This document shows positions 28,839 to 49,227 of a DNA stretch of 51,392 bases, one piece after another. Each line of letters starts with the position of its first letter. The first letter of the stretch is position 1. Source of the DNA: Candidatus Pacearchaeota archaeon CG1_02_32_21 (lineage in GTDB: Archaea > Nanobdellota > Nanobdellia > Pacearchaeales > GW2011-AR1); assembly GCA_001872185.1 (NCBI GenBank), contig MNVX01000036.1, positions 1 through 51,392 on the forward strand, read 5' to 3'. Under the pieces are notes generated by a model, which saw only the letters and a list, made by a program, of their open reading frames with translations, ran no database searches and was not told the origin of the DNA. The position numbers were made by a program, and so were the translations under genes.

Positions 28839-28974
28839 GGCCTTGTCGTCCAACGGCTAAGACACATCTTTGACGATGTGGGACAACCTATGGTTTTCCT
28901 GACACTACCTTTCCACTTTGAAAGAGAGTAACATCAAACTGGATGGGACCCAGGTTCAACTCCTGGCAGGGCCA
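28839..28974 (+). tRNA. tRNA-Val (anticodon GAC) with 64-nt canonical 37/38 intron (28876..28939)
   Basis: Exon 1 is 37 nt (GGCCTTG...CATCT-TTGACG); exon 2 is 35 nt (T-GGATG-GGAC-CCAGG-TTCAACT-CCTGG-CAGGGCC-A). BHB motif: outer helix CATCT/GGATG, central helix TTGA/TCAA, 3-nt bulges CGA and ACT, inner helix TGT/ACA. Confidence 0.75.
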
Positions 28975-29152
28975 TAAAAACCACCTCCGGGTTTTATAAT
29001 CCTGGACCCAGCCCTACATGATTGCAGGGCCATTTTTTATTATTTAATGACTCTTAATTATATTAGTTAGTTACTAACTTACTTAGTAACTTAATAAGAA
29101 ACATTTATATATTATTCCTATTTTAGTTGTATGTTTTAAAAGAGAAGCTCTG

Positions 29153-29287
29153 ATGAAAAAATATCTTTTGCTTATTGAGGATGAGAAATTGTGGGAAAGA
29201 TTTAAGGATTCTATTAGAAATGACATAAATAGTGAAATAATTGAACTAATCAGAAAAAAGATTAGCTCGGGAGGTAAAAAAGAATGA
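29153..29287 (+). CDS. small ribbon-helix-helix-like protein, 44 aa (not in ORF track)
   Basis: MKKYLLLIEDEKLWERFKDSIRNDINSEIIELIRKKISSGGKKE has a beta-strand then two helices, as in CopG/Arc folds. Its stop overlaps the next ATG (ATGA at 29284-29287). Confidence 0.4.
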   Translation: MKKYLLLIEDEKLWERFKDSIRNDINSEIIELIRKKISSGGKKE

Positions 29288-31224
29288 ATGATTTGAATAA
29301 TAAGGCTGGAAAAAAGGCAACTCGCACTTTGACTTTCAGTTTTAATGATAATCTTGTAAAGTCAAAGCGCTCACAAATTACCTTATTTGTTATTATAGCT
29401 ATTATTATTGTTGCTGCAGTAATAGGTATATTTGTTTTTAGAGATAAGTTATTTACTATTGGAGGTAGTAGCGAATTTCAAGAAGTTTATACTTATTTTG
29501 ATTCCTGTGTTGAGAGTGTTACTTTGGATGGAATTCAAATTGCCGGAAGCCAAGGAGGATATATAGAAATCCCTGAATTTGAACCCGGAAGCGAGTATGC
29601 TCCTTTTTCAAATCAGCTGGAGTTTTTGGGGCAACCTGTGCCGTATTGGTATTATATTTCCGGAAACGGGGTTGCTAAGGAGCAGATACCTTCAAAAAAA
29701 GAAATAGAAAAACAACTCAGAGAGTATATAGAAAAAAATATCGCTACCTGTGATTTTTCAGCTCTAAGAAATAAGGGTTATGAAATAAATGTTAGTGCTC
29801 CAAAAGCAGATGTTTCTATAAGCAAGAATGTTGTAGGAGTTAATGTTAATATGCCTCTTAGTGTGAGTAAAAATGAAAAATCAGAGATAAAATCAAGGCA
29901 TGATGTCAGTGTTTTCAGCAAATTAGGAAAATTTTATGATCTGGCAAATGAAATATACAATAAGGAAAAAGAAGAATCATTTTTAGAAAATTATTCAGTA
30001 GATGCTCTTTATAATTATGCCCCTGTTACAGATATTGAAATATCTTGTGCCCCTAAATTCTGGAATGCTGAGGATGTTGCAAATGACCTTAAGTCCGGGT
30101 TAAGTGCAAATATTGGAGCGATTAAATTAAACGGGGAGTATTATTCTTTGAGCAAAAAAGAAAACAATTATTTTGTTTTGCCTATTGAAACAGATGAAAG
30201 CGCCAGTTTTGTTTATGATACAAGATGGCCGAGCAGAGTTGAAATCTGGCCAGCGGAAAATAACCTTTTAATTGCACAACCAGTTGGTTTAGAAGAAGGT
30301 TTAGGAATATTAGGATTTTGTTATATACCTTATCATTTTGTTTATGATGTTTATTATCCAGTACTTGTACAAATCTATGATGATAATGAAATATTCCAAT
30401 TTCCTGTAGCTGTTATTATTGATAAAAGCAATCCAAGGAAATCTTTAGAAACTACAGATAGTGCTATTGATGAAATAGGCATATGTAACTACCCAACAAC
30501 TTCAATAGATGTTTATACATTTGATTCTCAGTTACAACCAGTTGAAGCTGATATTGAGTTTCAATGCTTTAGTGATTTGTGCAATATTGGAAGTACAGTT
30601 GTTGAAGGAACTGATGCACACATACAAGAAACTTTCCCTTCGTGCATTAATGGAAAGATAACTGCAAAAGCAGAAGGTTATGTCAGCCAAGATTATATTA
30701 TATCAACAAATGCCCCTGGTGTTGCGAATATTTTAATAGACAAGCTTTACGATTTAGATGTAGAAGTTGTTGCTGGAGGTCTGGATGTTAAAGACAGGAA
30801 AGGACAGGCTTTGATAAATTTCCAGGGAGAAAGATATTCTACCAGCTTGTTTTATCCAGAGCAAACAAGCATTAAGCTAGCTGAAGGATTTTATAATGTA
30901 AGTGTACAGGTATTTTCAGAAAGCTCTTTAACGATTCCTGCTAGTACCTCAAGTAATTGTGTTCAAGTGCCAAAGCCAGGAATATTTGGATTTTTTGGAT
31001 CAATAAGTGAACAGTGTTTTAGTGTTGATATCCCTTCCCAGAATTTGGGAAGCGCCTTAAGTGCTGGCGGTAAAAGCAGTGAATTTATTTTGGAAACTAA
31101 CTTAAAAAATTCTAATAACATGAAGATTAGTGTTCCGAACTTGCCTTCGGTTACGAGCTTGGATCAGTTACAGGCTAATTATCAGTTAATAGACTATCAA
31201 AATATTGCTTTGGAGTTCACATGA
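29284..31224 (+). CDS. 646-aa N-terminally anchored extracellular protein of unknown function
   Basis: Single N-terminal hydrophobic helix after KSKRS|QITLFVIIAIIIVAAVIGIFVF, a class III signal-like layout. No recognisable domain. ATGA overlap with the giant ORF. Confidence 0.6.
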   Translation: MNDLNNKAGKKATRTLTFSFNDNLVKSKRSQITLFVIIAIIIVAAVIGIFVFRDKLFTIGGSSEFQEVYTYFDSCVESVTLDGIQIAGSQGGYIEIPEFEPGSEYAPFSNQLEFLGQPVPYWYYISGNGVAKEQIPSKKEIEKQLREYIEKNIATCDFSALRNKGYEINVSAPKADVSISKNVVGVNVNMPLSVSKNEKSEIKSRHDVSVFSKLGKFYDLANEIYNKEKEESFLENYSVDALYNYAPVTDIEISCAPKFWNAEDVANDLKSGLSANIGAIKLNGEYYSLSKKENNYFVLPIETDESASFVYDTRWPSRVEIWPAENNLLIAQPVGLEEGLGILGFCYIPYHFVYDVYYPVLVQIYDDNEIFQFPVAVIIDKSNPRKSLETTDSAIDEIGICNYPTTSIDVYTFDSQLQPVEADIEFQCFSDLCNIGSTVVEGTDAHIQETFPSCINGKITAKAEGYVSQDYIISTNAPGVANILIDKLYDLDVEVVAGGLDVKDRKGQALINFQGERYSTSLFYPEQTSIKLAEGFYNVSVQVFSESSLTIPASTSSNCVQVPKPGIFGFFGSISEQCFSVDIPSQNLGSALSAGGKSSEFILETNLKNSNNMKISVPNLPSVTSLDQLQANYQLIDYQNIALEFT

Positions 31225-34200
31225 GAATAATTTTTTTGAAAAAGATTAGACAAAGCCAGGAAATGAAAAATTTAGCTGTAATTTTAATTTTTGGAATTTT
31301 AATTAATTTGAATTTTGTTTTTGCGCAGAATTTTGGAGGAAGCGGCACAATGGGACAAAGTTTTTCTTCATATGGAAGCGCCAGTTTTACAAATGTTCAG
31401 TATTTCAGTCCTGGTTATTTTCCAGGTGCTAGTTCTGGACTTGGAGCTTATAGCGGGGTTTCAATAGAAGAATTCAATGAGGTATGTAGAAACAGACAGG
31501 ATTTTGTTATTCAGATAGCTCCTGGAAGTTGCACACCAGCTGTTGTAAGAAGTGATTTATTAGCAGAGCAAAATGTACCTGTTTTTTGCCAGTTAACTGC
31601 TACTCAGGTAAATCCTCTGATAAATACCCAAAATATAAGGAGCATAAGACTAGTCAGTAACGGAAATGTTTCCCAAGATATTATTGGAGTTAGTTATTAC
31701 AGGCCACAGAGAGAAATATTTGCTAAAAAAGACAGTAATGGGTTTTTGAGTTTCAGCAATATTGGATATGCAATAATAATATTAAAAAGACAGCCAAATG
31801 AGAACTTACAACCAGACTTTATATACGGCAATTTAACTGCTTATTTGAGTTATGGCACCTCCGGACAGTTAGGAGCACAGTTAAATGAAAAATTGATTCC
31901 TGTACTAAATGATGAAGATTGGAATTCTTATTACCAAGAGTATTCTTTCCTTGACGGAAGGGGATTTTTTAGAGTAGAAGATTTATCTGGAGATAGGGCA
32001 AAAATAAGTGTTTATCGTGATGCTAATACAAAAGTTGATTCTTTTATAATTGAAAAAGGGCAAAAAAGCAATGAAAGATATTTAGCCGGAGGATATTGTA
32101 ATGCAGGATATAATATTGAATTTTTAGATAGTGTTCAAACCCAGGAGAAAGCAAGTATTTTATTAGATGGGGATGAGTATGAGGTTTTTGAGGGAGGAAA
32201 GTTTGGAGATAATTGTGCAGTAAGAAAATTATATGATACAGGTTTTGGCACTGGTAAAGTTGATGTAAAGTGCCTTGGAACTAAAGATTTCTCTCTTGAA
32301 ATTAAACATAAACCAGTGAAATTAAACTTTGACAGTTCAGACAAAAATTTTGAAATCGGGGAAAAATTATATGCAACTGAAAATAGTAGTGCATATCTTG
32401 GAGCGATCAACAAGAAGGTTAGTGAAGGCGGAAAATTTTTTATTGTTTTAGTTGATGCTAAGGAGTTTACAAACAGTCTTAAGGGAAATATAAATAAATT
32501 TAGTTCTGAAATTGCCTTAGGTACAGAAGAAAATGTTGCAAAGGAAAAATATCTTAAGGATAATACAATAGCAGTGGTGTATAAGGGAAATAAAGGAAAC
32601 ATTGGAGGCAAGGAAGTTAGTTTTATTGATTTCACAGATATTGAGAATGTAGAAACTCAAAGTGCTGAGTTTGAAAAATATTTTGGGGCATCTGTTGATT
32701 CTTATAAAAATTTAGAAGAGCAGTATGGAGAGTATGATTATCCAGAAGATACAACTCTTCCAGATCAAGCTAAGTATAACAAGTACGGTGAAGTTGCTGT
32801 TTCTCGAGCAACTGATCTAGCTAAAACAAGAGGGGAGGTTGGAACTGAGATGGAATTTGCAAAAATAGGTGAGGATAATTATGGCCTTTTGTTAAGCGAT
32901 AAACTTTCCTCAATTGAATTTTTTAATTATCAGGATGCCAGTTATGAGTTTGAAATAGATGGAATTACTCATAGAATATCTCTGGAAAAGATAACTAGTG
33001 TTGATTTAGATAAAATTAAGGTTATTATTTCTGTTAATGGAGATAAAAAAGTATTACATAGATTTGGAGAGTATCTTATTCCTCCAGATGGTACAAAAAG
33101 CATTACATTAAAATCATTTGATGACGATTCTGTTAGTTTGGAAGCTGATTGCGGCAGTAAAACTACAGAAACAATTTCTCTTGGTAAAAGAGCACCAGTT
33201 TGTAGTATGGATATTTATGTTAAAGAAATTAAAACAGAAAAATTGGCTAAGTTTAGAATAACGCCTGTGCAAAGAACTAGTGATGGAGTTGCTAATTTAA
33301 GTTATGGTATTGGAGTTGAAAAAAGAGCCTTTCCTTTAAGTCCTGAAAAATCTCTCGAGAGGATAAACAGGCTAAATGAAAGCATAGAAAAGTGGAAGAA
33401 TATTAATGAAAATCTTGGTAAACTTGTTAAGGCTGGAAAGGCGGCATGTTTTGGAACAAGTGCTGCCCTTCAGGTTAAAAATTTATTATCTGGTATGGGT
33501 GGTAAAGCAATTGCCAGAGAAGTTGTAATGAAAAACGATGGCGGTTGGGATAGCATTTGTCAAGCAGAAGTTGCAGAAGGAAAATATTCTAGCCTAGACG
33601 CATGTTTTAGGTCAAATGCTGATAAAATTGAGGAAGATGTCAGTTCAGTTACCAATATTGTTAAAGAGCAAGATGCTGAAAATAAGGAAATAGATAATGC
33701 AAATAAAATTGAAGGATCTGGCATGTTTTCTAATGGAATTGACGGAGATGAAGCTTACACGGATTATCTTTCATCAATTAAATCAAGATATTCTAGTTCA
33801 GATAGTATTGTTAAAAATGAAAAAGGAGATAAACAAATAAATATTGGAGAGGTAGTGTCTGGATTAGAATCTGGAAGCGCCAGTAGGGAAGATTTAAGAG
33901 AAATAGATTTGCATATGAGAATATTAAAAGAAAGTGACAGTGATTCACTTAAAGCAATTGCAGAAAAATCTCTTTATGATAAACTACAGCCTATTCAGCA
34001 AGAGTCTTTAGATAACAAAGATAAAAGCAGTTATGTTTCCAATCTTGAAGCTAAAGGGGTTGTAAATGTAGGTAATGTTGAGGTAATTTCTTCTAATAAG
34101 AGATCTAAGATAGGAGAATATAATGGGGAGGTTACTTCTGAAGCTATTGGCTCTATTGTTAAAGGTTCTAATATAAAACCAATTATTTTTGATGGAAAGA

Positions 34201-37064
34201 AATATCTGCTTAAACTAGATTCTGTTGACGATACGAAGTTTACAATTAGCAGGGTAGATGATGTGCCTCAGGTATTTGATGAAAATGGTAATCTAATTGG
34301 TGATAAAGAAGAAGCTGAATTAGTTGCAAGTTATTTTACTCAGTTTGTTAAGTATAATACTGATAGTTATAGAAATGGATATGATAGTCCTTTAGTTAGA
34401 TATTATGAGCATGACCCTTACAAAGGAATGCCAGCAATTGTTCCTTTTGATACCCAGAATGGCTGGTATGCTGGAACTAAGCAGACTCTTGCTACTTTTA
34501 ATAATATAGCTTCATATGATGAAAGCGGAAGAATATCTAGCTTTTGGTTATGCAATGTTGGAACCAATCATAGGGAAGAGTTCACAACAGGATTTGGAGA
34601 TGATATTTGCCAGCAGTTTAATCTTAATACTGGTCAGCCATTAGATCAATTTCCAGGATTAAATGAAGAAGAGGCAGTGAAACTTGTTAAAAATGCTATT
34701 CAATCTTTAGAACAAGCTTCTCAACAATATAGTACAGGAGTTCGTAAGGTAAAAATTCTTGGTAAAACTTATGATGTTGGAACCCCAGCTGTTTCAACAC
34801 CTAGCGCCCAGTGTCAGGATTTCATGAGCCCTAAGGATTGCCAGTTGATGTTTAATGTTTGTGATCCTGTTATTTGTCCAAGTAGCAGATGTAATCTTGG
34901 AGGAAAATATCAAGTAGATGATGTTGTACAAACAGGAATTGTTGGAAGTATTTTAATGTGTTTACCAAATGCAAAAGAGGGAATTGTTGTTCCGATTTGT
35001 TTAACAGGAGTAAATGCCGGTATTGAGAACTTTGTTTCAATACTTGAAGCTTCGAGAGATTGTTTGCAGGAGAGTGTAGACAGTGGAACATATGTAGGAA
35101 TATGCGACGAAATTACTGCTGTTTATAAGTGTGAATTTTTCTGGAACCAGGTTTCTCCGGCATTAAATGTTATGCTTCCGAAATTACTTGAGAGAGTTTC
35201 TGGACAGGGAGTCAGAGGTGGTGGAGAGTATGCAGGTGTAAGCGCTGCCTGGCAAAATATGCAGAACTCAATTGATTATTTTAAGAATCAATATAGCATA
35301 AATGCACTTAAGGCGTTTAGAGTTCGTTCTACTCAAGAAGTTGGAACTCCCATATGTAAGGCATTTGTATCTGCAAGATTTGCTAATAAATTTAGTTCTT
35401 TAATAGAACCAGACTCTCCTTATCAGTTTAGCGCATGGTTTGATGAAATTCTTTTTACAACTGCTACAACTCCAAGTTTAAGCCAGTATAAAGTATTTTA
35501 TCATATCTATGCTGGTAATGATCAGGGCATTTATTATAGTGTATATTTGAAAGAGCCGACTGGAAGTTCATTTATTCAGTCAACAGGAGTAGTTGTTGTA
35601 GATACAGGATTTGTTGGAAGAGGAGAGTACAATAGTCAGGCTAAAGATTTCACAGCCCCTTCTGGATTTAAACAACTTTGTGTAAGAATAAATGGAGAAG
35701 AAAAGTGCGGGTTTAAGCAAGTAAGCACAAGTTTTGCTGTTAACTATGTTAGGGATAAATATGTACAAGATCAGTTAAATCAGACTAATATTAAATCAGA
35801 GAGAGAATGTATTTCTGGTTCTCCAGGTGCTTTAGCTTTGGTCAATCCTAACTTAGAATCAGGTGTTGAAGATGCTACACTTCCTCAAATTTATGAAAGA
35901 GGAATTGTAAGAGTTTGTTCAAGTGGAAATCCTGGAAGTGCAGTTGATCCTTCAAGGTGGGTTGAAGTAGGGTATTGTGATGATAAAAGTATTAGCTGCT
36001 GGTTAGACAGAGAGAGTGTTGACAGAGCTATTAGTTCTGAAAACATTGGCGTAAAAAATCAGACAAAGGCTGATTTGAATGCTTTAGCAGATAGGATTGC
36101 TGAAAGAGATAAAACAGGATTGTTGATAGAAGATTCTGGTGGAAATATTATCTTTGAGGATTTTGAAAAAGAGATAGACTCTTTGTCATCTTCAAGCCTT
36201 AGTTTTTCAGATGCAGAAACTAATTCAAAAATTATACTTGCAAAAATAAATGAAGTTGAAGATAAATACCAGTTATTGGATAAAGATTACGCAAGATTAT
36301 TTTTTGATAGGGCATGGACTTATGAAATGCTTGCCAGAAAATCCCCTTATCCTGAAAAAGAGGTTCCTGTTAGTGAACCTAATGAAACTGTGGATAGTGG
36401 TGCAGGTGGTAGTGAAGGTGAAGAAACTCCAACAGATCATGGAACAGCTGGAGAGACAGGTGTTTTAAGCAGCGAGGTTCCTGCAATTCTTCAGGGAATT
36501 TTTATTGAAGCTTCTGATGCTACAGGTACTCCTGCTTCGCTTATAGCAGCTATTTCCTACCAAGAGTGTGGAGATTTGTGGAATGATGCTAAAAGGGATG
36601 AACCAAAAATTAAGAGTTTAATAGAAAATAATGGAATTCCAAGAGTTGGTGATTTATGTAATTCAAATAACGGATATAATGTTTTTGGTCCAATGCAGTT
36701 TCAGATAGGAATTGACTATCTTGCTGAAAATGGTTTTGATAATAGAATAAGAACAATTAATCCAAAAGGAATAGCATTGCCAAGAGAGGGGACATGGGAG
36801 GACTATGATGATAGTGCAGCTTCTTTATTGAAGGTAAGTGTAGATGAAATAAGTCCGTTAGTTATTAGACACGCAGTTTATGCTGCTGCTATTAAACTTA
36901 ACAAAGATGCTGGTGATCCTTCTGTTTGGACAGATGAAGATATTAGAAATGCTGCAAAAGGATATTTTGGAGCTTGTGATGATACTCAGGTTATTGGAGG
37001 AGATGAAGTTGTTGTGCATTATTGTGATGATATTATTTCTAAGTATAATAAATATAAGGCTTAG
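31221..37064 (+). CDS. 1947-aa secreted giant protein with Cys-rich core and C-terminal lytic-transglycosylase (SLT/lysozyme-like) domain
   Basis: Uninterrupted 5.8-kb ORF. Signal peptide MKNLAVILIFGILINLNFVFA|QN (alternative ATG 31263). C-terminal motifs LIAAISYQECG, FGPMQFQ and AAKGYFG parallel the SLT motifs ES, GLMQ and AYNxG. Confidence 0.7.
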   Translation: MRIIFLKKIRQSQEMKNLAVILIFGILINLNFVFAQNFGGSGTMGQSFSSYGSASFTNVQYFSPGYFPGASSGLGAYSGVSIEEFNEVCRNRQDFVIQIAPGSCTPAVVRSDLLAEQNVPVFCQLTATQVNPLINTQNIRSIRLVSNGNVSQDIIGVSYYRPQREIFAKKDSNGFLSFSNIGYAIIILKRQPNENLQPDFIYGNLTAYLSYGTSGQLGAQLNEKLIPVLNDEDWNSYYQEYSFLDGRGFFRVEDLSGDRAKISVYRDANTKVDSFIIEKGQKSNERYLAGGYCNAGYNIEFLDSVQTQEKASILLDGDEYEVFEGGKFGDNCAVRKLYDTGFGTGKVDVKCLGTKDFSLEIKHKPVKLNFDSSDKNFEIGEKLYATENSSAYLGAINKKVSEGGKFFIVLVDAKEFTNSLKGNINKFSSEIALGTEENVAKEKYLKDNTIAVVYKGNKGNIGGKEVSFIDFTDIENVETQSAEFEKYFGASVDSYKNLEEQYGEYDYPEDTTLPDQAKYNKYGEVAVSRATDLAKTRGEVGTEMEFAKIGEDNYGLLLSDKLSSIEFFNYQDASYEFEIDGITHRISLEKITSVDLDKIKVIISVNGDKKVLHRFGEYLIPPDGTKSITLKSFDDDSVSLEADCGSKTTETISLGKRAPVCSMDIYVKEIKTEKLAKFRITPVQRTSDGVANLSYGIGVEKRAFPLSPEKSLERINRLNESIEKWKNINENLGKLVKAGKAACFGTSAALQVKNLLSGMGGKAIAREVVMKNDGGWDSICQAEVAEGKYSSLDACFRSNADKIEEDVSSVTNIVKEQDAENKEIDNANKIEGSGMFSNGIDGDEAYTDYLSSIKSRYSSSDSIVKNEKGDKQINIGEVVSGLESGSASREDLREIDLHMRILKESDSDSLKAIAEKSLYDKLQPIQQESLDNKDKSSYVSNLEAKGVVNVGNVEVISSNKRSKIGEYNGEVTSEAIGSIVKGSNIKPIIFDGKKYLLKLDSVDDTKFTISRVDDVPQVFDENGNLIGDKEEAELVASYFTQFVKYNTDSYRNGYDSPLVRYYEHDPYKGMPAIVPFDTQNGWYAGTKQTLATFNNIASYDESGRISSFWLCNVGTNHREEFTTGFGDDICQQFNLNTGQPLDQFPGLNEEEAVKLVKNAIQSLEQASQQYSTGVRKVKILGKTYDVGTPAVSTPSAQCQDFMSPKDCQLMFNVCDPVICPSSRCNLGGKYQVDDVVQTGIVGSILMCLPNAKEGIVVPICLTGVNAGIENFVSILEASRDCLQESVDSGTYVGICDEITAVYKCEFFWNQVSPALNVMLPKLLERVSGQGVRGGGEYAGVSAAWQNMQNSIDYFKNQYSINALKAFRVRSTQEVGTPICKAFVSARFANKFSSLIEPDSPYQFSAWFDEILFTTATTPSLSQYKVFYHIYAGNDQGIYYSVYLKEPTGSSFIQSTGVVVVDTGFVGRGEYNSQAKDFTAPSGFKQLCVRINGEEKCGFKQVSTSFAVNYVRDKYVQDQLNQTNIKSERECISGSPGALALVNPNLESGVEDATLPQIYERGIVRVCSSGNPGSAVDPSRWVEVGYCDDKSISCWLDRESVDRAISSENIGVKNQTKADLNALADRIAERDKTGLLIEDSGGNIIFEDFEKEIDSLSSSSLSFSDAETNSKIILAKINEVEDKYQLLDKDYARLFFDRAWTYEMLARKSPYPEKEVPVSEPNETVDSGAGGSEGEETPTDHGTAGETGVLSSEVPAILQGIFIEASDATGTPASLIAAISYQECGDLWNDAKRDEPKIKSLIENNGIPRVGDLCNSNNGYNVFGPMQFQIGIDYLAENGFDNRIRTINPKGIALPREGTWEDYDDSAASLLKVSVDEISPLVIRHAVYAAAIKLNKDAGDPSVWTDEDIRNAAKGYFGACDDTQVIGGDEVVVHYCDDIISKYNKYKA

Positions 37065-37108
37065 TGCAACCACAAATCCTTTCCTTATGTAATTTTTAGT
37101 TATATCTA

Positions 37109-37192
37109 TGCGAGAGACAGGATTCGAACCTGTGAACTCACTAAGAGACGAGATTTTGAGTCTCGCGCGTTTGACCACTTCGCTACCCTCGC
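37109..37192 (-). tRNA. tRNA-Leu (anticodon CAA), class II with long variable arm
   Basis: Reverse complement: GCGAGGG...CGAGA-CTCAAAA-TCTCG, variable arm TCTCTTAGTGAGTTC, ACAGG-TTCGAAT-CCTGT, CTCTCGC-A. Confidence 0.9.
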
Positions 37193-37944
37193 TTATATAA
37201 ATTATATGGGTTAAGTTTGTTTTTAAGGATATCTTTCCTTTGACTTATTGTTGTGTGTGGTGGGCAAAATCCAAACCTTTTCCATACATCATATCTTGTT
37301 ATGTGTTTTAGATTTTCTGGGCTAATTTCTTCCATAAATCTTTTTATATTGGGTATTCTATTTATTTCTAATATATTTACATCATGGTTGTTTCTCCTGT
37401 TACTGTAACCTCTTTTTATGGTCCTTGTCACGCATCTATAATTTAACTCTTTTAGTATTTTAGATGTTTCATTAATTAATAAATGAGAAATACTTGTTAG
37501 CCTAATTCTGATTTTTGTATGATAATATGAATTAAATCTATCCGCATATTTTGTATAATCTTTTTGGCAAGATATACTTCCATCGGTATCAAATAAACCT
37601 CTTATGAAAGACCTCTTTACCTCTTCATTTGAATTTTTTATCCAACTAGGTATTTTAGCTGTAAGAGCTTTATTTCCCTTTGGCAAACCAAAATTTAATA
37701 ATTTCTGAATATTTTCTTTTCCATGGATTGAAACTCCATAAACTTTCCAATATGGGAATTCTTTTGTTTCCACCTTTTTAATAGTTTTACTTATTAATTT
37801 TGATAAATATAAGTCGTAATATTCTTTGTCCTCTATAGGGTCTCCTGCTATGAAACAACTTTTCTCGTTTGATTGTATCCATCCGTCACCAATTATTGCT
37901 CCACATAACTCAGCCACTATTTTTTTGTCTTGAATCTCACCCAT
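37183..37944 (-). CDS. free-standing double-motif LAGLIDADG homing endonuclease
   Basis: Two LAGLIDADG motifs: AELCGAIIGDGW and SFIRGLFDTDGSIS. The last 10 nt, including the stop TAG, overlap the 5' end of tRNA-Leu. Confidence 0.75.
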   Translation of the reverse strand: MGEIQDKKIVAELCGAIIGDGWIQSNEKSCFIAGDPIEDKEYYDLYLSKLISKTIKKVETKEFPYWKVYGVSIHGKENIQKLLNFGLPKGNKALTAKIPSWIKNSNEEVKRSFIRGLFDTDGSISCQKDYTKYADRFNSYYHTKIRIRLTSISHLLINETSKILKELNYRCVTRTIKRGYSNRRNNHDVNILEINRIPNIKRFMEEISPENLKHITRYDVWKRFGFCPPHTTISQRKDILKNKLNPYNLYKRG

Positions 37945-43349: not shown

Positions 43350-43421
43350 TATAATTTATTTTGAAAGTTTTGCCATACACTTTATAAATTTAGCTTGTTT
43401 TGCATTAAAGAAAAGAATAAA

Positions 43422-44486
43422 ATGAAAATACTTTTTGGAGTTTTAGATTGGGGGTTAGGACATGCTACAAGAGACATTCCACTTATAGAAGGTCTGCTTG
43501 GTATAGGACATAGCGTTGATATTATTTCAAATGGAAGAGCACTTAAAATTCTGAAGGAAAAGTTTGGAGGAAGATGTAACTATTATGATATTTCTGGCCT
43601 TTATGTCCCACAGATGTATTCTAGCTATTTTATTTTAGCATGTGCCATGAATTTGCATAAAATGGCTGCTTCTATTCTTAAATCTAGGAAAAAAATAAAT
43701 AAAATCATAAAAAATGGGAAGTACAATTGGATTATAAGCGACAACAGGTTTGAACTTTATGATAGACCATCAAATTCTATTATGATTATACATACTCTTA
43801 ACTTTAATAGTCATTTATTAAAATACCCTATTACAAAGCTTATGGAATTTATTACAAAACCATATGGAATACTTATTGTCCCTGACTTTCCAAAAAAAGG
43901 TATTGCAGGGATTATGGGTCAGAATAAGAATATACTTAACAAGGAAGTGCACTATATAGGTGTTCTTTCTCAAATAAGAAAAAAACATTATAAAAAGAAT
44001 ATAGATTATTTCATTTCTCTTTCTGGTCCAGAGCCACAGAGAACTATTCTTGAGAATAAACTTATAAAACAATGCCACAAGTTGAAAGGGAATATTGTTA
44101 TAGCAGGGGCTAATCCTGATGTAAATCAAACTAAAACAATTGGAAAAAATATCAAACTTTATAGTTTTTTAAACACTCAGTATCAAGAAGAAATGATGAA
44201 CAGGGCAAAATTTATCATTACAAGAAGCGGATTTACAACTACTGCAAATATGATTGAACTTGGGAAAAAAAGAGCTTTACTTATTCCTATGCCTGGCCAA
44301 CCTGAACAGGAATTTCTTGCTGATTTATATGAGAGAAAAAAATACTTTCACCACGTGCATCAGGATGATATTAATTTAGAAAAAGATATTAAAGTTGCAA
44401 TGAAAGGATTTAGAGGATTTAGACCTCAGTGGAGAACTAAAAGATCTGTCAAGAAATTTTTAAAAATCATAGAAAAGAAGAGATAA
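43422..44486 (+). CDS. glycosyltransferase (GT1/GT28-like, MurG/UDP-glycosyltransferase fold)
   Basis: N-terminus MKILFGVLDWGLGHATRDIPLIEGLLGIGHSVDIIS and C-terminal TRSGFTTTANMIELGKKRALLIPMPGQPEQ are typical of this fold. ATG 43422; the track start 43395 is TTG. Confidence 0.6.
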   Translation: MKILFGVLDWGLGHATRDIPLIEGLLGIGHSVDIISNGRALKILKEKFGGRCNYYDISGLYVPQMYSSYFILACAMNLHKMAASILKSRKKINKIIKNGKYNWIISDNRFELYDRPSNSIMIIHTLNFNSHLLKYPITKLMEFITKPYGILIVPDFPKKGIAGIMGQNKNILNKEVHYIGVLSQIRKKHYKKNIDYFISLSGPEPQRTILENKLIKQCHKLKGNIVIAGANPDVNQTKTIGKNIKLYSFLNTQYQEEMMNRAKFIITRSGFTTTANMIELGKKRALLIPMPGQPEQEFLADLYERKKYFHHVHQDDINLEKDIKVAMKGFRGFRPQWRTKRSVKKFLKIIEKKR

Positions 44487-48666: not shown

Positions 48667-49227
48667 ATGAATAGAAAAAAGATTACTAAAAGCACCAAGG
48701 TAAAAAACAGCAAAGAAATTAAGGTAGTTTTATCAGATGGAGAGATAACCAGTGCGTCTAAGGATGCTTTGGACCTTTATAGCAACAGGTTATTTGGAGA
48801 GTACTCTGAAAAAAGAGTTAGATATTCTCTAAGTGAAGCAATTTATCTAGTAGACAAAGGTAAAATTAGTGTTTACAAGAAAACTAAAAAGCTAAGTTTA
48901 AATCAGTTAATTGACGAATGTAAAAAAATCGATAAAAAAACTTATGTTAAATTCCTTGTCTTTAAGGATTTAAGAGATAAAGGATATATACTAAAAACAG
49001 CCTTGAAATTCGGAGCAGACTTTAGGGTTTATGACAAGGGTTCTAAACCTGGTAAAGAGCATGCTAAATGGATTTTGTACCCTATTTCAGAGTCTCAGGA
49101 AATGACCTGGCATGATTTTTCTGCTAAGAATAGAGTTGCTCATAGCACTAAGAAAAATTTGTTAATAGCTATTGTTGACAGCGAAGGAGATATTACTTAT
49201 TATGAAATTTCCTGGGTTAGACCTTAA
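48667..49227 (+). CDS. endA: tRNA-splicing endonuclease EndA
   Basis: FKDLRDKGYILKTALKFGADFRVYDKG...EHAKWILYP...AHSTKKNLLIAIVD contains the Tyr/His/Lys catalytic positions of archaeal EndA. Confidence 0.9.
   Translation: MNRKKITKSTKVKNSKEIKVVLSDGEITSASKDALDLYSNRLFGEYSEKRVRYSLSEAIYLVDKGKISVYKKTKKLSLNQLIDECKKIDKKTYVKFLVFKDLRDKGYILKTALKFGADFRVYDKGSKPGKEHAKWILYPISESQEMTWHDFSAKNRVAHSTKKNLLIAIVDSEGDITYYEISWVRP

Follow-up and report, generated by a model that had tools for sequence, protein, structure and literature searches.

Why should a giant protein of an archaeon end in a domain that resembles the enzymes of bacterial cell wall breakdown? The question is raised by a 51,392-nt stretch of DNA from Candidatus Pacearchaeota archaeon CG1_02_32_21 (contig MNVX01000036.1; this whole stretch is referred to as the window), in which a gene on the + strand (31221-37064) encodes a protein of 1,947 amino acids (aa) with a hydrophobic signal-like N-terminus, a Cys-rich core of ~1,700 aa, a linker and a C-terminal domain (aa 1753-1947; 36477-37061, + strand) that, by family-level evidence, appears to be a divergent lysozyme-like domain of the GH23/SLT clan. 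A preliminary description of the DNA had read this domain as an SLT (lytic transglycosylase)-like module. That interpretation is supported overall, with corrections: the spacing of the motifs differs from that of SLT enzymes, the single sequence has no Pfam match, the origin appears to be bacterial and not phage, and the chemistry is left uncommitted. The explanation favoured here, which is considered probable if not strongly so, is that the domain is a Glu1782-dependent glycosidase of the GH23/SLT clan that cuts bacterial peptidoglycan, that it descends from VirB1-like hydrolases of bacterial type IV secretion systems (T4SS), and that it is an interchangeable cassette on a secreted giant protein.

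The C-terminal domain and its family

The strings LIAAISYQECG, FGPMQFQ and AAKGYFG, to which the preliminary description had drawn attention, are reproduced exactly by translation of the 3' end of the giant open reading frame (ORF; 36480-37064, + strand), which closes with a TAG stop codon at 37062-64. The candidate catalytic acid, Glu1782 (GAG; 36564-36566, + strand), stands in the motif S-x-Q-E-C and, in an alignment of 147 homologous domains, is invariant in all 142 homologues that cover the column. The residue that follows is Cys, Gly or Ser across the family in place of the Ser of SLT domains. The G-P-M-Q-F motif (aa 1823-1827; 36687-36701, + strand) is the counterpart of the SLT motif GLMQ, with G1823 and Q1826 found in 147/147 domains and M1825 in 131/147. 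The Y-F-G of AAKGYFG (aa 1915-1917; 36963-36971, + strand) is likened to the SLT motif AYNxG by position only; Y1915 (143/147), G1917 (134/147) and the pattern A-A-x-x-Y-x-G are conserved, and the hhalign alignment given below stops short of that region. Also conserved are W1903 (140/147), K1892 (133/147) and three Cys positions (128-138/147), and the window domain carries four Cys at family-conserved positions. The order of the motifs is thus that of SLT enzymes, as had been proposed, whereas the spacing is not: Glu and GxMQ are 41 residues apart (family median 37) compared to 13-24 in the canonical SLT domains of orthologous giant proteins. A word-indexed search of 5.8 billion proteins for homologues of the domain returned three matches (E 5.5e-26 to 2e-22, 35-41% identity), and an exhaustive search of 1.84 billion with a 4-sequence profile returned 262 cluster representatives at E <= 1e-3. 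The motifs go well beyond what chance would produce, and the family is small but real.

Membership of the lysozyme-like clan, as claimed earlier, holds at the level of the family and not for the window sequence alone. Among 40 diverse relatives, eight match Pfam SLT (PF01464; best E 3.4e-5, with one score of 19.6 against a cutoff of 21.3 bits) and five match SLT_2 (PF13406; best E 5.9e-8), such that SLT or SLT_2 is detected in 13/40. By contrast, the window domain has no Pfam SLT match even at E <= 1 and does not reach the PF01464 gathering threshold. The preliminary description had named the lack of a significant hit as an outcome that would speak against it, and for the single sequence this is formally the outcome, as no Pfam SLT match is found. 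When aligned by hhalign to 12 canonical SLT domains taken from orthologous giant proteins, the family gives E 5e-5 and places QEC on QES and GPMQF on GLMQI. A 40-sequence profile searched against PDB yields sub-threshold matches to goose and T4 lysozymes only (E 0.6-1.7), in which Glu1782 is weakly aligned to the 'ES' Glu of goose lysozyme. The AlphaFold2 model of the domain, built from the 40-sequence alignment, has a pLDDT of 94.5 and a pTM of 0.90 and places Glu1782 at the C-terminal end of helix 34-44. Foldseek searches of PDB with this model rank the GH23 chitinase Ra-ChiC first (3w6b/3w6f; prob 1.0, E ~0.01, TM 0.57-0.60 on the target), followed by MltF, MltC, Slt and SltB1, and all interpretable matches are GH23/GH103/GEWL-type enzymes. 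Searches of viral models return GEWL-like and lytic-transglycosylase proteins, weakly. A lysozyme-like helical fold is supported by the model, and the domain is regarded as a distant member of the lysozyme-like clan because no structural E-value is strong.

The rank of Ra-ChiC bears on a serious but less probable alternative, in which the fold is shared while the chemistry or the substrate differs: the domain would be a hydrolase (muramidase or chitinase-like), perhaps acting on chitin or on a β-1,4 GlcNAc-containing glycan of an archaeal or eukaryotic partner. A near-invariant Asp of the family lies downstream of the Glu at a median distance of 86 residues and might act as a general base, the role known from inverting GH23 hydrolases. 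In Ra-ChiC, Glu141 and Asp226 are 85 residues apart, which is a lead only. Biochemistry points the same way: in the T4SS hydrolase PrgK, the predicted 'SLT' domain has been shown to act as a muramidase (PMC11323569); for this reason, no commitment is made here to transglycosylase chemistry. Set against this alternative, whatever the family is associated with in genomes belongs to peptidoglycan machinery (T4SS clusters, CHAP, GH3 and cassettes of other murein hydrolases), and the window copy has a His (His1884, CAC; 36870-36872, + strand) instead of the Asp that occupies this position in 141/147 homologues.

The same substitution invites the suggestion that the domain is catalytically weakened and serves mainly as an adhesin, binding glycan to keep the archaeon attached to a bacterial wall. 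The Asp to His change falls at a 96%-conserved position, and the ratio of nonsynonymous to synonymous substitution rates (dN/dS), measured against the 83%-identical orthologue P0154 (locus L009), is 0.45 in the domain and 0.08-0.15 in the core. Such a role is nevertheless quite improbable, as Glu1782, GPMQ, YxG and all four conserved Cys are kept and the dN/dS is still well below 1. His is also found at position 1884 in the Pacearchaeota giant protein P0165, while Asp is present in P0154 and in a further archaeal giant, P0010; since His recurs in a second archaeal lineage and Asp is kept in the closest orthologue, His1884 looks like tolerated variation rather than decay. The domain thus appears, from codon comparison, to be under constraint, although less so than the core. 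The dS against P0154 is also lower in the domain (0.39) than in the core (0.77), a small sample of 195 codons, which hints that the common origin of the cassette may be more recent than that of the core and is compatible with spread by recombination.

Relatives in bacterial type IV secretion loci

The closest relatives of the domain are proteins of 232-446 aa with an N-terminal membrane helix. In all four of the closest free-standing homologues examined (P0001, P0003, P0006 and P0007), the gene lies directly after PrgI, TraC-like and VirB4-like genes, and in all loci read (L001, L002, L010 and L011) it is followed by conserved genes of ~340 and ~390 aa. The VirB4 of L001 is 39% identical to the 'VirB4-like conjugal transfer ATPase, CD1110 family' of Bacillota plasmids, and a wall hydrolase is annotated beside a CD1110-family VirB4 in at least one such plasmid. 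In CD1110-family conjugation systems of Bacillota, a wall hydrolase follows VirB4, and monoderm-type T4SS are also found in Patescibacteria (PMC12102498). Judged by gene order, the position of the relatives is that of the predicted VirB1-like wall hydrolase of monoderm-type T4SS. The L010 locus is assigned to a bacterium because it carries DciA and SMC. In more distant bacterial relatives, the domain is fused to CHAP.

A neighbour-joining tree, the type of domain phylogeny suggested in the preliminary description, unites the four archaeal copies in one clade, with P0023, P0015 and P0020 as nearest sisters. P0015, the nearest sister with a readable context, is encoded among PilMNO and two-component genes in a bacterial genome. 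The archaeal copies share an insertion after GPMQF. A bacterial or phage origin had been proposed earlier; the bacterial part is supported by the VirB4-adjacent relatives and by P0015, from which the domain appears to be of bacterial descent. The donors may have been Patescibacteria, as suggested by gene content (PilMNO, DciA and a monoderm-type T4SS). The phage part is not supported: the domain has no PHROG match and no tblastn match in 50,697 phage records, and its structural matches to viral models are weak. The same tblastn search finds no match in 72,556 plasmids, and an origin from phages or plasmids of cultivated lineages is dropped because these collections hold no match. A profile search of genome contigs with a narrow alignment returns a single locus, from another Pacearchaeota. 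Recent horizontal transfer was also considered and rejected, as the base composition of the domain (GC 0.349, GC3 0.154) is that of the host gene (giant-gene core 0.341 and 0.202), unlike that of the bacterial T4SS locus (GC ~0.49-0.59). Transfer to archaea is on this ground taken to be old.

Exchange of C-terminal cassettes

By blastn colinearity and protein alignment, the domain forms an exchangeable 3' cassette (36385-37064, + strand) that includes part of the linker, the lysozyme-like domain and the stop codon. The locus of a second giant protein, P0155 (L004), is colinear with window positions 28940-36384 at 79.6% DNA identity, then diverges fully and is homologous again from 37065. In the place of the window cassette, L004 has a 1,051-nt segment that codes for a spacer and for a phage-tail lysozyme (PF18013), while the P0154 locus L009 retains the cassette of the window. 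The conserved 3' flank, in which homology with the orthologous locus resumes, includes a tRNA-Leu(CAA) gene (37109-37192, - strand) that begins 45 nt past the stop codon of the giant gene. The core of the giant protein is vertically inherited, and its C-terminal cassette is swappable. In the literature searched, no report was found of cassette-like exchange of C-terminal modules between near-identical loci.

The exchange extends across the protein family. More than 380 homologues of 1,717-2,597 aa are found for the first 1,726 residues of the giant protein, and, where the organisms are named, they are Pacearchaeota, Nanoarchaeota or 'archaeon'. The core is alignable to about residue 1700 in all homologues, beyond which tails of 90-840 aa differ. 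Among the best 120 of these homologues, the tails include canonical SLT (12/120; one also with a glucosaminidase and one also with GH3), phage-tail lysozyme PF18013 (5/120; one also with Amidase_3), the window-type domain (4/120; one also with GH3) and DUF2272 (1/120), with at least five Pfam module types at the C-termini overall, and the tail is shorter than 170 aa in 30/120. A recognised wall hydrolase is present in 18/19 of the homologues closest to the window core (>=42% identity), or in 19/19 if the uncharacterised DUF2272 of P0159 is counted. Single-linkage clustering of the tails lumped unrelated modules via shared linkers and was not used.

This pattern has a bearing on two further explanations of the domain. 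According to one, it is an autolysin by which the archaeon reshapes its own wall, one of murein- or pseudomurein-like type. Close orthologues swap the domain for unrelated hydrolases or carry none, which is unexpected of a housekeeping autolysin, and no Mur-ligase or other wall-synthesis gene is found among the window ORFs scanned. No support for self-wall remodelling was found, the only lead being a GT28-C-like glycosyltransferase gene (43395-44486) that was tried as MurG and rejected, as it scores 18.7 against a cutoff of 250 bits and fits the MJ1255 family best. Pseudomurein, moreover, has β-1,3 bonds and no MurNAc. Action on a pseudomurein-like glycan, which had been raised in the preliminary description, is likewise unsupported, and a role in the archaeon's own envelope is rejected as extremely improbable.

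The second explanation is that the enzyme serves nutrition and not attachment or attack: muropeptides and amino sugars would be released from bacterial debris and taken up by a metabolically poor archaeon. In its favour, the archaeal giant protein P0010 joins the window-type domain to a GH3 (NagZ-like) module that would carry out the next step of murein catabolism, and muramoyl-tetrapeptide carboxypeptidase is reportedly abundant in Pacearchaeota genomes (PMC11537232). Feeding is still an unlikely purpose, as a scavenging enzyme mounted on a conserved structural core of 1,700 aa seems too costly, no uptake or catabolic genes adjoin the giant gene among the window ORFs examined, and the short-tailed orthologues retain the core. 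Since orthologues with short tails keep it, the core has a function of its own.

The giant protein and its proposed mode of action

The giant protein has a single strongly hydrophobic stretch, residues 14-40 (…ILIFGILINLNFVFA, then QNF), which a Kyte-Doolittle scan places at 31260-31340 on the + strand (…NLAVILIFGILINLNFVFA, then QNF) and which is predicted to be a Sec signal peptide or an N-terminal anchor. With this one N-terminal stretch and 34 Cys in total, the protein is likely to be secreted and disulfide-bonded. The most conserved part of the core (aa 1045-1605; 34353-36035, + strand) has 55-77% column identity and 26 invariant Cys among the 120 homologues and a dN/dS of 0.08. Within it, aa ~1192-1400 (34794-35420) is the most conserved stretch of the family, with up to 77% column identity and many invariant Cys, and is predicted to form long, moderately hydrophobic helices for which the AlphaFold pLDDT is about 30. 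Foldseek searches with a model of the core return generic Ig-like β-sandwiches only, such as ApaG and GH2 accessory domains, and a sandwich of this type is the one part of the core for which a fold was obtained. The core is joined to the enzyme domain by a linker in which Thr, Gly, Asp and Glu abound (aa 1701-1752; 36321-36476, + strand), inside which the breakpoint of the cassette exchange falls (~36384).

Upstream, a gene of 646 aa (29284-31224, + strand) shares its last 4 nt with the start of the giant gene. Its product has no family match, and its N-terminus ('KSKRSQITLFVIIAIIIVAAVIGIF'; KSKRSQ-ITLFVIIAIIIV…) resembles an archaeal pilin-type signal or a membrane anchor. In four other Pacearchaeota loci (L004, L005, L006 and L009) a gene of 620-646 aa is found at this position, and the 646-aa protein is probably a functional partner of the giant protein.

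On these grounds a sequence of events may be proposed for the favoured explanation, that the domain is a peptidoglycan-cutting glycosidase of T4SS descent. A VirB1-like wall hydrolase of a monoderm-type bacterial T4SS would have been captured long ago by Pacearchaeota and would now be one of a set of wall-degrading C-terminal cassettes that replace one another on a conserved secreted giant. The N-terminal signal would export the giant protein; its Cys-rich core of ~1,700 aa would build a surface structure, perhaps kept in place by the 646-aa partner, which is co-transcribed and has a membrane-anchor N-terminus; and the flexible, acidic Thr/Gly linker would present the enzyme at the far end. 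There, with Glu1782 as the acid catalyst, the enzyme would cut the glycan strands of bacterial peptidoglycan and locally open the sacculus of a neighbouring bacterium, whether host, prey or competitor. An immunity protein would not be needed because the archaeon makes no such wall. That the domain cuts the bacterial cell wall is probable in view of its associations: peptidoglycan is suggested as the target by the T4SS slot, the CHAP fusions, the GH3 fusion and the interchangeability with other murein hydrolases. Of the elements of this explanation, the homology, the fold, the conserved residues, the swapping of cassettes, the T4SS relatives in bacteria and the archaeal nature of the host are shown, while export, catalysis, the peptidoglycan substrate and the biological purpose are inferred.

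Several findings weigh against this explanation. Neither the window domain nor the whole protein has a meaningful match in Pfam, NCBIfam, PHROGs or PDB (phmmer and a 4-sequence profile). The hhalign probability is 67%, with only the N-terminal half of the domain covered; no Foldseek match has E < 0.009, the TM values are moderate (0.44-0.60), and the best structural match is a chitinase rather than a murein enzyme. At a position that is Asp in 96% of the family the window copy carries His, and the dN/dS of the domain, 3-5 times that of the core, could reflect relaxed constraint. One hydrophobic segment underlies the prediction of export and surface display, and the fold of the core could not be modelled (pLDDT 56.7 for aa 1045-1605, AlphaFold2 with a 19-sequence alignment). 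Most cultivated DPANN archaea live on other archaea, and no host organism is known for the archaea considered here.

A broader reading of the locus is put forward tentatively, as a possibility that is more doubtful than the wall-cutting role itself: the giant protein may be a conserved host-contact organelle of Pacearchaeota, with a swappable tip cassette matched to the envelope of the bacterial host of each lineage, and the window cassette may come from the T4SS of co-resident ultrasmall Patescibacteria-like bacteria. If this were so, these archaea would live on or prey on bacteria, a cross-domain episymbiosis that is not yet demonstrated, and the type of cassette could predict the type of host.

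Host genome and neighbouring genes

The host of the giant protein is a DPANN archaeon, Candidatus Pacearchaeota, as the preliminary description had recognised in calling the protein archaeal. The window (G+C ~32%) encodes RadA, TFB, SRP54, FtsY, a GAN/RecJ-like DHH protein and Gins51, together with RNase Z, a tRNA-splicing endonuclease (48667-49227) and an intron-containing tRNA, and the giant protein is 100% identical to 'hypothetical protein COU56_01925' of Candidatus Pacearchaeota archaeon CG10_big_fil_rev_8_21_14_0_…. The giant gene has ribosomal-protein genes, tRNAs and TFB as its neighbours in the window. Its gene order, namely NDK, S3Ae and L44e (opposite strand), then a small ORF, the 620-646-aa partner, the giant gene and, further on, TFB, is kept in the four other Pacearchaeota loci named above. 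No type IV secretion gene is detected among the window ORFs scanned, and the giant gene does not lie in a T4SS cluster of the type that houses VirB1-like hydrolases. The only ORF to overlap the end of the domain (36858-37178, - strand) runs antisense through the domain and the tRNA-Leu gene.

Beyond the giant gene, a free-standing LAGLIDADG_3 homing-endonuclease-like ORF of 253 aa (37183-37944, - strand) abuts tRNA-Leu(CAA) and has no counterpart in L004 by blastn comparison. Past the tRNA-Leu flank, L004 instead encodes a 273-aa protein, a 641-aa Peptidase_M23 protein and BtpA. The Peptidase_M23 protein (L004 15071-16996, + strand) belongs to the family of lysostaphin-type wall endopeptidases, and its gene lies ~1 kb downstream of the giant one. 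It is a second murein-directed enzyme at the locus with the phage-tail-lysozyme cassette and is absent from the window. A tRNA of 136 nt (28839-28974, + strand) is detected by Rfam and missed by ARAGORN; 64 nt of it (28876-28939) are missing from the L004 tRNA (~80% DNA identity) and represent an intron that, of the two genomes, is present in that of the window only.

Other surface-related genes are found towards the start of the window. Seven consecutive small ORFs of 151-368 aa (18-4866 and 6347-7252, + strand) share an N-terminal layout of a basic stretch, a [KR]-[GAS]-Q-like site and a hydrophobic helix, which resembles archaeal type IV pilin-type signal peptides. Near them is encoded a polytopic membrane protein whose match to FlaK/prepilin peptidase is weak (NF040695, E 2e-12, well short of the cutoff). 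This region may be a pilus or surface-appendage locus, which could bear on host contact. Between 9052 and 12204 lie four neighbouring genes of 267, 296, 229 and 205 aa, one of them on the + strand and the others on the - strand, whose products are predicted multi-pass membrane proteins that start in a signal-like manner. The first two products share 'PTIGEN…' motifs and coiled C-terminal tails and resemble a paralogous pair.

Comparison with known systems

Giant proteins of this general type are known from DPANN archaea. Castelle 2021 (PMC8204110) describes large murein-transglycosylase proteins in Pacearchaeota and Woesearchaeota, cites Rinke 2013 and Castelle 2015 for earlier sightings, and proposes attachment to and degradation of bacterial walls; Vigneron 2022 (PMC9723730) notes 'large lytic murein transglycosylase' genes in Woesearchaeota and argues for predation. 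A 2025 PLoS Biology article (PMC12352652) reports bacteria-killing peptidoglycan hydrolases from other archaea. The surprise voiced in the preliminary description at a murein-cleaving domain in an archaeon was overstated, as DPANN proteins of this class have been on record since 2013-2021 (PMC8204110). The window core is 42-45% identical to proteins named 'transglycosylase SLT domain-containing protein [Ca. Pacearchaeota]' at NCBI. The published giants share the size range, taxa and proposed role of the window protein and belong to the same protein family, and the DPANN family fam00969 of Castelle 2021 (up to ~3,000 aa; Pacearchaeota and Woesearchaeota) fits the window protein by size, taxa and domain description. 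By contrast, the published giants carry the canonical SLT domain PF01464, whereas the window protein has a distinct subfamily that is missed by Pfam and NCBIfam, is annotated 'hypothetical' and is found in 4/120 giants. The phenomenon itself is already published, and little is added to the idea that DPANN archaea with huge secreted murein-cleaving proteins may interact with bacteria. As far as searched, the unannotated subfamily, its kinship to T4SS hydrolases and the precise exchange of cassettes may be new. Surveys based on GH23 or PF01464 would undercount such domains, since the protein is 'hypothetical' and without a Pfam match.

The VirB1-like hydrolases of monoderm conjugation systems include PrgK of pCF10, TraG of pIP501, CwlT of ICEBs1 and those of Patescibacteria T4SS (PMC12102498, PMC11323569). 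Similarly to these, the T4SS relatives of the window domain are N-terminally anchored, single-domain proteins encoded right after VirB4, and CHAP, which is added in PrgK and TraG, is likewise added in the more distant relatives. The window domain differs in that it sits on an archaeal giant and not on a short membrane anchor, and the archaeal copies form a clade of their own. The kinship offers a concrete donor lineage and a functional analogy, that of a local and controlled opening of the sacculus versus bulk lysis.

Compared to enzymes of GH23 family 1 (Slt70, MltC, MltF and GEWL), the modelled window domain appears to share the helical fold, with the Glu at a helix end followed by a small β element with GxMQ; a later Y-x-G may, by its position, correspond to AYNxG. 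It departs from them in having 'EC' for 'ES', with a Cys that is probably disulfide-bonded, in an insertion of ~20 residues between the Glu and GxMQ, and in an added C-terminal β-hairpin, helix and two conserved Cys pairs. GH103 family 3 (SLT_2 PF13406; MltB/Slt35 and SltB1) provides the best single Pfam E-value among the relatives and includes SltB1 among the structural matches; however, the window sequence has no SLT_2 match and the domain is much smaller than the catalytic domains of MltB. The 'QF…TW..Y' stretch after the Gly resembles the MltB motif. A direct enzymatic test is practical because the 195-residue domain is small, confidently predicted and disulfide-rich.

The architecture of the giant family is also reminiscent of polymorphic toxins, which have a long conserved N-terminal region and a sharply bounded, exchangeable C-terminal effector with the breakpoint in a linker. 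Unlike polymorphic toxins, the giant gene has no immunity gene downstream but a tRNA-Leu instead, none of the known trafficking domains, such as RHS, filamentous haemagglutinin or LXG, is detected in the giant protein, and a quarter of the family is nearly tailless. Because its 3' cassette can be exchanged cleanly and its core is inherited vertically, the family represents a natural experiment by which the type of cassette could be linked to the type of host envelope.

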